Positions 39,308-39,811 of a DNA stretch of 64,000 nucleotides are shown piece after piece (the stretch's first letter is position 1; every line of letters begins with the position of its first letter). Origin of the DNA: a plasmid; sequence record NZ_CP023526.1; one strand, given 5' to 3'. The notes below the pieces were generated by a model. It was not told the DNA's origin. It was given only the letters and a program-made list of their open reading frames with translations, and made no database searches. The translations under genes were made by a program, and so were the position numbers.

Positions 39308-39811
39308 TTACAACGTGGGGGGCCAATTGCCAATCATTACATGAAGCCTTTCCATTTCTTGAGCTAAAAGATAGTTTTCAGCAGGATGCCGGGATAATCC
39401 AAAATCAATTAAGTTAAATTGTCGGAGAGATTCATCAAAAAGAATGTTTGTTGATTTAAGATCGCCGTGATAAATATTCATATTGTGAATATTCTGAACC
39501 GTTGTAATTAACTGATTTCTGTCTTGTAAGGATAGCGTTGATTTATCATAAAATTGTAAACTCTCACCTGGAATTTTCCTCATCGTCATCGTCGTTCTGT
39601 TGATCATTTCAGCAGAGTCATTGCCATGCACCATTCTAAATATTCTAACTTCATCTTCCACACCAAACATAGCACCTATTCCCCGAAGCTCCTTACGAAC
39701 ATATCCATTTCCGATATCATAAACAATCCCGCCAGCCCCGACACCTAATACATTCTCGCCCACACTGCTATTACTGCTATTACGACGAAAAACCTTATTC
39801 AGCAGCACCAT
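39308..39811 (-). CDS. NleH/OspG-family minimal Ser/Thr kinase-like protein (167 aa; atypical RIO/Bud32-like kinase fold), candidate T3SS effector kinase
   Basis: Gly-rich loop VGAGGIVYD and VRK lysine. MRKIPGESL parallels NleH MNKINGEPL / OspG LRVPGTPL. Catalytic loop IYHGDLKSTNILFDE and FNLIDFGLS parallel NleH ILFVDTTETNVLYD / FNPIDISS and OspG IIHYDLNTGNMLYD / FPIDF. The N-terminus is Ser-rich and the gene is AT-rich. Confidence 0.75.
   Translation of the reverse strand: MVLLNKVFRRNSSNSSVGENVLGVGAGGIVYDIGNGYVRKELRGIGAMFGVEDEVRIFRMVHGNDSAEMINRTTMTMRKIPGESLQFYDKSTLSLQDRNQLITTVQNIHNMNIYHGDLKSTNILFDESLRQFNLIDFGLSRHPAENYLLAQEMERLHVMIGNWPPTL

Follow-up and report, generated by a model that had tools for sequence, protein, structure and literature searches.

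A small kinase ORF of Cedecea neteri is likely an insertion sequence-generated, chimeric remnant of an OspG/NleH-superfamily toxin warhead

INTRODUCTION

The effector kinases OspG of Shigella and NleH1 and NleH2 of enteropathogenic and enterohemorrhagic Escherichia coli (EPEC/EHEC) are built on a minimal protein kinase fold and are delivered by the type III secretion system (T3SS). OspG-type kinases are only weakly active without their eukaryotic partner, a ubiquitin-charged E2 enzyme (E2~Ub). In this study, we describe a 167-amino acid (aa) open reading frame (ORF) of Cedecea neteri which starts with ATG, lies at positions 39308..39811 on the minus strand of a 64,000-nucleotide stretch of the plasmid sequence record NZ_CP023526.1 (this whole stretch is called the window below), and has a product identical to the NCBI protein "serine/threonine protein kinase [Cedecea neteri]". 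An original prediction, made without database searches, had taken it for a very small NleH/OspG-type kinase that may mark a cryptic effector repertoire. We find that membership in the OspG/NleH mini-kinase superfamily is supported, and that the ORF is likely to be a chimeric, insertion sequence (IS)-generated remnant of the kinase warhead of a polymorphic-toxin cassette.

Two other toxin systems bear on this locus, namely the Rhs cassettes and the Tc ABC insecticidal toxins, whose TcC component ends in a hypervariable region (HVR). Tc toxins inject eukaryotic cells. PKc_like HVRs of TcC proteins have been mentioned in passing in a survey of Tc toxins (Song et al., 2021; PMC7861908), and apart from that mention we found no experimental study in the literature of OspG-like kinases belonging to the Rhs/TcC clade described here. 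In the databases, some of these relatives are already named "OspG family effector kinase".

RESULTS

The 5' end of the kinase ORF is IS6-derived. When a complete IS6 transposase (Tnp) from a Klebsiella plasmid was compared with the window by tblastn, the alignment, at 74% identity, ran through an in-frame TGA into the kinase ORF (at the junction, ...DHSTLHRW-VIRLVPLLDKVFRRH in the transposase against ...DHATL-RW*VIRMV-LLNKVFRRN in the window), and the DNA identity detected by blastn, 80% over 39783-39981, ended at 39783. Residues 1-10 of the ORF (MVLLNKVFRR) correspond to transposase residues ~58-68 (LVPLLDKVFRR), the ATG of the kinase ORF having arisen by a Leu-to-Met change within the transposase, and homology to kinases is seen only from about residue 11-14 onward. 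The upstream 85-codon ORF (39821..40078) is the N-terminus of an IS6-family transposase, in frame with the kinase ORF. The kinase start had been described as overlapping the stop of a transposase fragment; there is no literal overlap, the TGA lying 9 nt upstream of the ATG, but the link between the two genes is closer than that description implied in that IS6 homology crosses the TGA in the same frame and occupies the first 29 nt of the kinase ORF. A weak Shine-Dalgarno-like GGTGA, which overlaps the TGA 9 nt before the kinase ATG, is the only ribosome-binding candidate.

On the opposite side of the ORF, the inverted repeat (IR)-like end of a second IS6 fragment (GGCTTTGTCGAAAA, read inward) stops at ~39279, only ~28 bp from the kinase stop codon, and therefore leaves no space for a downstream gene or terminator; no immunity gene lies directly downstream of the kinase ORF. 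We looked beyond 40078 for a left inverted repeat of IS6, and for IRs of the two fragments that would pair with each other, and found none that was convincing. Since the kinase junction falls inside the transposase gene, at codon ~69, it did not arise from normal transposition of an IS end, and reflects deletion or illegitimate recombination. The size that had led to the description of a "very small" kinase is a truncation product, because the 5' end is IS6-derived and the native 5' part is gone: codons 1-10 are IS6 sequence, and the ORF lacks ~200 residues of its closest full-length relative. Megablast against E. coli genomes gave no match, megablast against plasmids matched the IS6 part alone, and tblastn against plasmids returned only "RIO1 family" matches with ~30% identity.

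Downstream of this junction, the ORF retains a kinase domain. Its translation contains, in order, GVGAGGIVYD (the Gly-rich loop, residues 23-32), VRK (K40), MRKIPGESL (77-85), IYHGDLKSTNILFDE (113-127) and FNLIDFGLS (132-140), and these are all the motif segments, in the right order, on which the original prediction had been built. The Ser-rich N-terminus and the AT-richness that it pointed out are equally real (NSSNSS at residues 11-16; 38% GC in the kinase-derived part versus 50% across the window). Alignment with the clade of close relatives placed G23-G28 in the Gly-rich loop and showed that every catalytic position is kept (K40, E54, H115-G-D117, N122 and D136-F-G). The DFG motif is followed by only ~30 residues. 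The catalytic Lys and Asp, whose loss had been named beforehand as the finding to look for against the assignment, are thus both intact. Judged by these residues, the ORF would qualify as an active enzyme, with a Gly-rich loop, a VAIK-type Lys, an alphaC Glu, HxD...N and DFG.

Family models place the protein near OspG and NleH and below their thresholds. As a single sequence it passed one Pfam threshold only, that of Pkinase (37.9 bits versus a gathering score of 31.7, over residues 99-144 only), and it scored 19.6 bits with OspG_kinase (PF22303), under the gathering score of 27. The OspG_kinase threshold was passed by its relatives P0004 (42.2 bits), P0156 (40.1), P0007 (40.8) and the L004 protein (50.7). 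The top NCBIfam model was NleH (the equivalog NF041316), at 41.9 bits against a cut-off of 450 and over profile positions 138-269 only; membership in NF041316 denotes a full-length protein of ~293-304 aa with at least 450 bits and an N-terminal secretion/host-binding region, and that region is absent from the 167-aa ORF, of which residues 1-10 are IS6-derived. In a single-sequence search of the PDB, the best three matches were the kinase domains of NleH2 and NleH1 (E~3e-7 to 9e-7, residues 11-141). A profile (A1) combining the ORF with its eleven nearest relatives matched OspG at 1.4e-22, NleH1 at 1.3e-21 and NleH2 at 8e-21, with the next kinase at 1.4e-8, and 10 of the 12 members of this clade matched Pfam OspG_kinase. 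Chance does not account for matches of this strength.

An AlphaFold model computed without a multiple sequence alignment (MSA) had a mean confidence (pLDDT) of 31 and was discarded. The AF2 model obtained from an MSA of 47 more distant relatives reached a pLDDT of 70 (more than 85 in the core, but with residues 46-70 modelled poorly), and its top seven Foldseek neighbours in the PDB were NleH1, NleH2 and OspG structures (TM score 0.54-0.60 on query and target). Among the PDB entries matched by profile and fold, 4bvu and 4q5e are complexes of OspG with an E2~Ub partner. According to this model, the protein is a predicted minimal kinase fold of the ~150-170 aa type, lacking the activation segment and the GHI subdomain. 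Because the A1 profile, the top NCBIfam model and the predicted fold agree, we regard the placement in the OspG/NleH superfamily as right; it remains the best-named family for this protein, as had been proposed.

The closest relatives of the kinase are the tips of Rhs and TcC proteins. A word-indexed protein search with the 167-aa ORF returned nothing beyond the protein itself, and the same type of search with A1 missed the Rhs/TcC clade, its only output being a distant tail of Bud32-like proteins. Exhaustive phmmer with the ORF retrieved 14 proteins at E<=1e-10. Once the query, a single repetitive eukaryote-like kinase and a few ORFs that are short or partial are set aside, the rest are longer proteins with the domain at their C-terminal end. 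The clade scored 92-126 bits against the 167-aa protein, compared with 43-46 for NleH and 33.5 for OspG, so that the comparison drawn with NleH1/2 and OspG was sound as to relatedness, but both are outscored by the Rhs/TcC-linked clade. In a neighbour-joining tree, the ORF grouped with P0012 (a fragment of P0240) and away from the OspG/NleH branch. Genome-locus searches with a tighter alignment (A2) found one Serratia metagenome-assembled genome locus and one 1.1-kb metagenome contig, and the clade is therefore rare in those collections.

These relatives have three kinds of architecture. P0003 (900 aa) is an RHS/TccC protein, as are the members of the P0006 cluster (853-941 aa, Enterobacter), and P0156 of Enterobacter combines TTc_toxin_rep, RHS repeats and OspG_kinase at 40 bits, that is, a TcC with a kinase as its hypervariable region; the fusion of TTc_toxin_rep with RHS repeats, seen in P0156 and in the cluster members named TccC, is lacking in the window ORF. 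In P0004, P0008 and P0018, an Rhs core-end (...GDPxNxxDPTGH) is followed by a Gly/Ala-rich hydrophobic linker and then by the kinase. P0005/P0151 of Serratia and P0007 are stand-alone proteins of ~260-280 aa with Ser/Ala/Pro-rich N-termini of ~90-110 residues, the Serratia gene being placed among housekeeping genes. A search with P0008 brought to light a large family of cassettes ~350-400 aa in length, each with an Rhs core-end, a linker and a variable tip, in Chromobacterium (many per genome), Serratia, Cedecea, Pantoea, Enterobacter, Yokenella and Salmonella, and the tips include kinases, F-box-like domains and ADP-ribosyltransferases. Such short proteins occur as stand-alone genes or in tandem arrays and not behind full-length rhs genes. 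P0165 of Burkholderia cenocepacia (164 aa, "OspG family effector kinase") starts inside the Gly-rich loop (MGRGGDA…) and, judged by its sequence, is apparently one more stump of this kinase clade that has lost its N-terminus, in which case such stumps recur.

The closest relative of all is P0240, a 364-aa protein (45% identity over residues 19-166 of the ORF, 126 bits) made of an Rhs core-end, a linker and the kinase. The two share the same C-terminal end (…NWPATN in P0240, …NWPPTL in the window ORF) and a Ser-rich spacer before the Gly-rich loop (SGSNGSHSSSESVYEVPIGQGAGG in P0240, matching NSSNSSVGENVLGVGAGG in the window), and the 167-aa ORF corresponds to residues ~200-364 of P0240. The gene for P0240 is cargo inside the type IV secretion system operon of an ICEclc/PFGI-1-like conjugative element (L038 10001-11095). 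P0237 closes a tandem array of four cassettes whose tips differ (L037 6405-11116). In C. violaceum, P0215 stands alone, 6 kb away from the T3SS genes prgHIJK-orgA (L035 10001-11101). At these three loci, no co-directional gene was called in the immunity position directly downstream.

The window itself contains a full-length gene for an RHS-repeat protein, the probable start of which is M92 at 23655, as the first ~91 codons look non-coding. The DPTGH motif of this protein is followed by a long Gly/Ala-rich hydrophobic linker, and the core-end and linker (18736-19392) are 47-58% identical to the N-terminal halves of P0004, P0008, P0213 and P0240. Its tip of ~200 aa differs from the kinase and has a weak DUF4347 match. 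No PAAR, VgrG, SpvB or TcB domain was detected in it with Pfam/NCBIfam, and its PDB matches to Rhs cores of the type VI secretion system are only weak. In tblastn with cassette N-termini, the window matched only in this RHS gene, at 18.7-19.4 kb, and not beside the kinase ORF. The presence in this strain of a full-length Rhs of the kinase-cassette subfamily supports, as sequence evidence short of proof, that the remnant was once a compatible cassette. An Rhs core ending in PxxxxDPxG[LH], which is found in P0240, P0004, P0008 and P0213, is missing beside the kinase ORF, and TcA and TcB were not found among the window ORFs scanned (at least 150 aa, roughly 3-48 kb).

Only two assemblies, near-identical to each other, were found to contain the 167-aa ORF. 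One is the NCBI assembly GCA_900461005.1, where it sits on a 721-kb contig (99.98% identity with the window); the other is an SRA-derived contig (100% identity with the window). The species-representative genome of C. neteri, in which the scan patterns would have matched, lacks the ORF. In the NCBI assembly, the IS66 tnpC is split into two ORFs (270 and 277 aa; L001 11556-13167), compared with an intact 536-aa ORF in the window (36647-38257) and in the SRA contig; the four gaps by which the assemblies differ are probably sequencing errors in homopolymers.

The features of the locus are collected in Table 1. The setting between IS6 and IS66 debris was correctly read at the outset: IS6 fragments stand on both sides of the kinase remnant, and beyond them lie an intact IS66 element (left) and IS66 debris (right).

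Table 1. Coordinates of the kinase ORF, its parts and the neighbouring elements in the window
Feature	Position	Strand	Remarks
Full-length RHS-repeat protein	18109..23928	-	1939 aa; 15 kb from kinase ORF
IS66-family element, intact	36647..38960	-	tnpA, tnpB, tnpC; abuts left IS6 fragment
Second IS6 fragment	39038..39279	+	Opposite orientation; Tnp codons 171-231 at 39038-39226, 53% identity
167-aa ORF, chimera	39308..39811	-	IS6-derived codons 1-10 plus kinase domain
Kinase-derived part	39308..39782	-	Residues ~11-167; complete OspG/NleH-superfamily mini-kinase domain, 38% GC
DFG motif	39398-39406	-
N122	39446-39448	-
HGD motif	39461-39469	-
K40	39692-39694	-
Gly-rich loop	39728-39745	-
IS6-derived start of kinase ORF	39783..39811	-	First 29 nt including ATG, IS6 transposase coding sequence; tblastn and blastn
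IS6-family transposase N-terminal fragment	39783..40078	-	Tnp codons 1-69 (39783-40009), in kinase frame; TGA 39821-39823
IS66-type debris	40587..41415		Other side of kinase remnant; 147-bp repeat 41023-41169 / 29862-30008
tRNA-Arg(CCG)	41666..41742	+	1.9 kb from kinase ORF

The tRNA-Arg(CCG) gene is a likely anchor of this patchwork of mobile DNA. Near 33.7 kb (33685-33834, minus strand), a tRNA-Met gene lies beside an odd tRNA-like gene whose anticodon could not be assigned, and both tRNA sites are possible integration sites or island borders. Directly beyond the IS6 N-terminal fragment, an AT-rich 98-aa ORF (40213-40509, plus strand) with no Pfam or NCBIfam match may be part of the same foreign low-GC segment. 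Further away, four large ORFs (727, 370, 906 and 556 aa; 6318-14623) with essentially no Pfam or NCBIfam matches adjoin a 914-aa autotransporter (3390-6134) and could be a virulence or toxin cluster. An M12-type metalloprotease with an InlB B-repeat (26548-28395), a VirK/DUF535 protein (34316-35359) and a split YhgA/Rpn-like transposase (29670-30648), all on the minus strand, are virulence-plasmid-like cargo scattered through the island. The segment 43396-47821 holds F-like conjugation remnants (the C-terminus of TraI at 44825-45589, and TraA in the called genes) together with a DsbA/ScsC thioredoxin and a LuxR-type regulator at 60-69% GC, which suggests an integrated, decayed plasmid or integrative and conjugative element beside the IS patch.

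DISCUSSION

Our interpretation is that the ORF would be the 3' ~475 bp of a polymorphic-toxin cassette, the C-terminal warhead of which was an OspG/NleH-superfamily minimal Ser/Thr kinase. In the intact relatives the kinase stands either behind an Rhs core-end with its self-cleavage motif (...DPxGH), a Gly/Ala-rich linker and a Ser-rich spacer, or behind a TcC shell, and it would be the delivered cargo of that shell, freed by the aspartyl protease of the core-end to phosphorylate proteins of the target cell. That target is probably eukaryotic, by analogy, because of the TcC linkage, the F-box-like sibling tips and the OspG/NleH homology. In the Cedecea strain, the 5' ~600 bp of the cassette appear to have been lost, an internally truncated IS6 copy having taken their place at 39782/39783. 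The IS6 transposase frame runs by chance into the kinase frame; the Leu-to-Met change provides the ATG, and the IS6 fragment is ended by the TGA that lies 9 nt upstream. Any product would depend on read-in transcription from the IS6 fragment and on weak translational coupling and would be of low level; otherwise the gene would be silent. What is left would be a cargo cut off from its vehicle. It has no secretion or encapsulation module and could not be delivered by the route of its relatives; therefore it cannot act as a delivered effector, and we infer that the remnant is without function.

Some observations weigh against this interpretation. No decay is seen in the catalytic domain, all residues invariant across the clade are kept, and the cut falls neatly at the domain boundary; such clean preservation fits a recent truncation event, and the same pattern would also fit retention by selection. 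With GGTGA and a spacing of 9 nt between stop and ATG, coupled translation could occur. A simple scan of 39000-40300, which does not cover IS-internal or non-consensus promoters, detected neither a minus-strand sigma70-like promoter nor a terminator. The ancestry is also ambiguous as far as the sequences tell, in that the TcC tips P0003 and P0156 and the stand-alone P0005 and P0007 are only slightly more distant than the cassettes and no Rhs core-end remnant lies beside the ORF. Finally, the interpretation presumes that the short cassettes of the Rhs core-end type are themselves expressed and delivered.

It seems, on balance, that an origin from an Rhs cassette rather than from a TcC or a stand-alone protein is somewhat favored by the sequence comparisons. 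The alternative that the ORF is what remains of a TcC hypervariable region or of a stand-alone effector of the Serratia type, ~260-280 aa long, gains from the missing core-end and from bit scores that lie close together (101-106 for TcC P0003 and P0156 and 103 for stand-alone P0005/P0151, near the 106 of cassette P0004), and is nevertheless unlikely: the closest relative, P0240, is an Rhs cassette, an RHS gene of the matching subfamily is present in the same window, and P0240 and its fragment P0012 share with the window ORF the C-terminal end NWPxT- and lack the PSIIGxxGRVYI tail typical of the TcC and stand-alone forms. As no core-end is left at the locus, the assignment to Rhs is one of ancestry and not of membership. 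In our view it is improbable that the chimera is still produced and kept as a functional kinase of the cytoplasm, either by coupling to the IS6 fragment or by read-through of the TGA to give a fusion of the IS6 helix-turn-helix with the kinase. The intact catalytic residues, the shared frame with the TGA 9 nt upstream and the weak SD-like sequence, and a truncation that leaves exactly one whole domain are what one would expect of such a protein; however, no promoter-like site was found on the minus strand, the ORF is confined to a single strain lineage with no evidence of conservation, and kinases of the OspG type depend for full activity on a eukaryotic E2~Ub partner.

A genuine though cryptic NleH/OspG-type T3SS effector, served by a T3SS encoded elsewhere in the genome, had been the attraction of this ORF. 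NleH is the best named match in NCBIfam and the PDB, the predicted fold is closest to NleH/OspG, the region has a virulence-plasmid flavor (VirK/DUF535, an autotransporter and IS debris), and a kinase cassette of C. violaceum lies 6 kb from prgHIJK-orgA genes. No T3SS genes were found among the window ORFs scanned, which is not decisive because another strain, C. neteri SSMD04, has been reported to have a T3SS, of the Inv-Mxi-Spa type. Yet the region where a T3SS signal should lie is IS6 transposase sequence, the scores stay below the NleH and OspG_kinase cut-offs, and all closer relatives are linked to Rhs/TcC or carry long N-terminal extensions which the ORF lacks. A type III effector would be marked by a native N-terminal signal, a chaperone or linkage to T3SS genes, and we consider this reading very improbable. 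A housekeeping small kinase of the Bud32, RIO or Kdo type can practically be dismissed. Weak matches to the Bud32, Kdo and RIO1 models and the Bud32-like tail of the indexed A1 search hint in that direction, but the scores fall short of the cut-offs (Bud32 37.9 versus 125, Kdo kinase 31 versus 142, RIO1 14.5 versus 22), the clade profile matches OspG/NleH ~14 orders of magnitude better than other kinases, and, instead of showing housekeeping synteny, the gene is strain-specific, lies amid IS debris and has a GC content of 38%. This identity was rejected on the scores and the profile, and neither Kdo/LPS kinases nor Bud32, which had been named in advance as the homologs that would speak against an OspG/NleH kinase, are its best homologs.

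The reading that we prefer, an IS-generated remnant of a toxin-cassette kinase, calls for a correction of the annotation: the "serine/threonine protein kinase" of C. neteri is an IS-generated chimera without a delivery module, and it should not be counted in an effector repertoire or as evidence of a cryptic T3SS arsenal. The OspG/NleH mini-kinase fold is also an exchangeable tip of Rhs cassettes and TcC proteins in Chromobacterium, Enterobacter, Serratia and loci borne on integrative and conjugative elements, and the objects worth study are the intact relatives (P0240, P0215 and P0156) and not the Cedecea remnant. A bolder version, in which OspG-like mini-kinases are a recurrent warhead of Rhs core-end cassettes and TcC with delivery to hosts outside the T3SS, possibly activated by E2~ubiquitin, and in which the Cedecea copy is perhaps a coupled-translated, undelivered active kinase inside the bacterium, is speculative and in our opinion rather unlikely as a whole.

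Compared with OspG and NleH1/NleH2, the window ORF has the same minimal fold, with the Gly-rich loop, Lys, alphaC Glu, catalytic Asp/Asn and metal-binding Asp at equivalent positions. Identity with these kinases is, however, ~20-30% (33-46 bits), and the motifs differ: the ORF has canonical HGDLxxxN and DFG, whereas NleH has FVDTTETN and PID and OspG has HYDLNTGN and IDF. Unlike OspG/NleH, it carries no N-terminal T3SS signal or N-terminal domain, and its relatives are set in Rhs/Tc delivery systems instead of the T3SS. The tips of the Rhs cassettes (P0240, P0004, P0008, P0213 and P0215) are closest to the window kinase, with the C-terminal end and Ser-rich spacer common to P0240 and a low-GC tip typical of swapped toxin modules; the defining Rhs core-end with its DPxGH motif and the hydrophobic linker are absent at the window locus, where IS6 stands in their place. 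Proteins of the TcC type carry the same kinase clade (35-39% identity) at the HVR position in bona fide TcC, whereas the window locus has no TcC shell and its ORF does not have the C-terminal PSIIGxxGRVYI tail of the TcC-linked forms. As to the IS6/IS26 family, the two transposase fragments flanking the remnant are 74% and 53% identical at the amino acid level to the Klebsiella plasmid IS6 transposase; both copies are truncated, and only the left one has an IR-like end. The locus is thus a new but degraded addition to the known kinases of the OspG/NleH superfamily and to the tips of polymorphic toxins.

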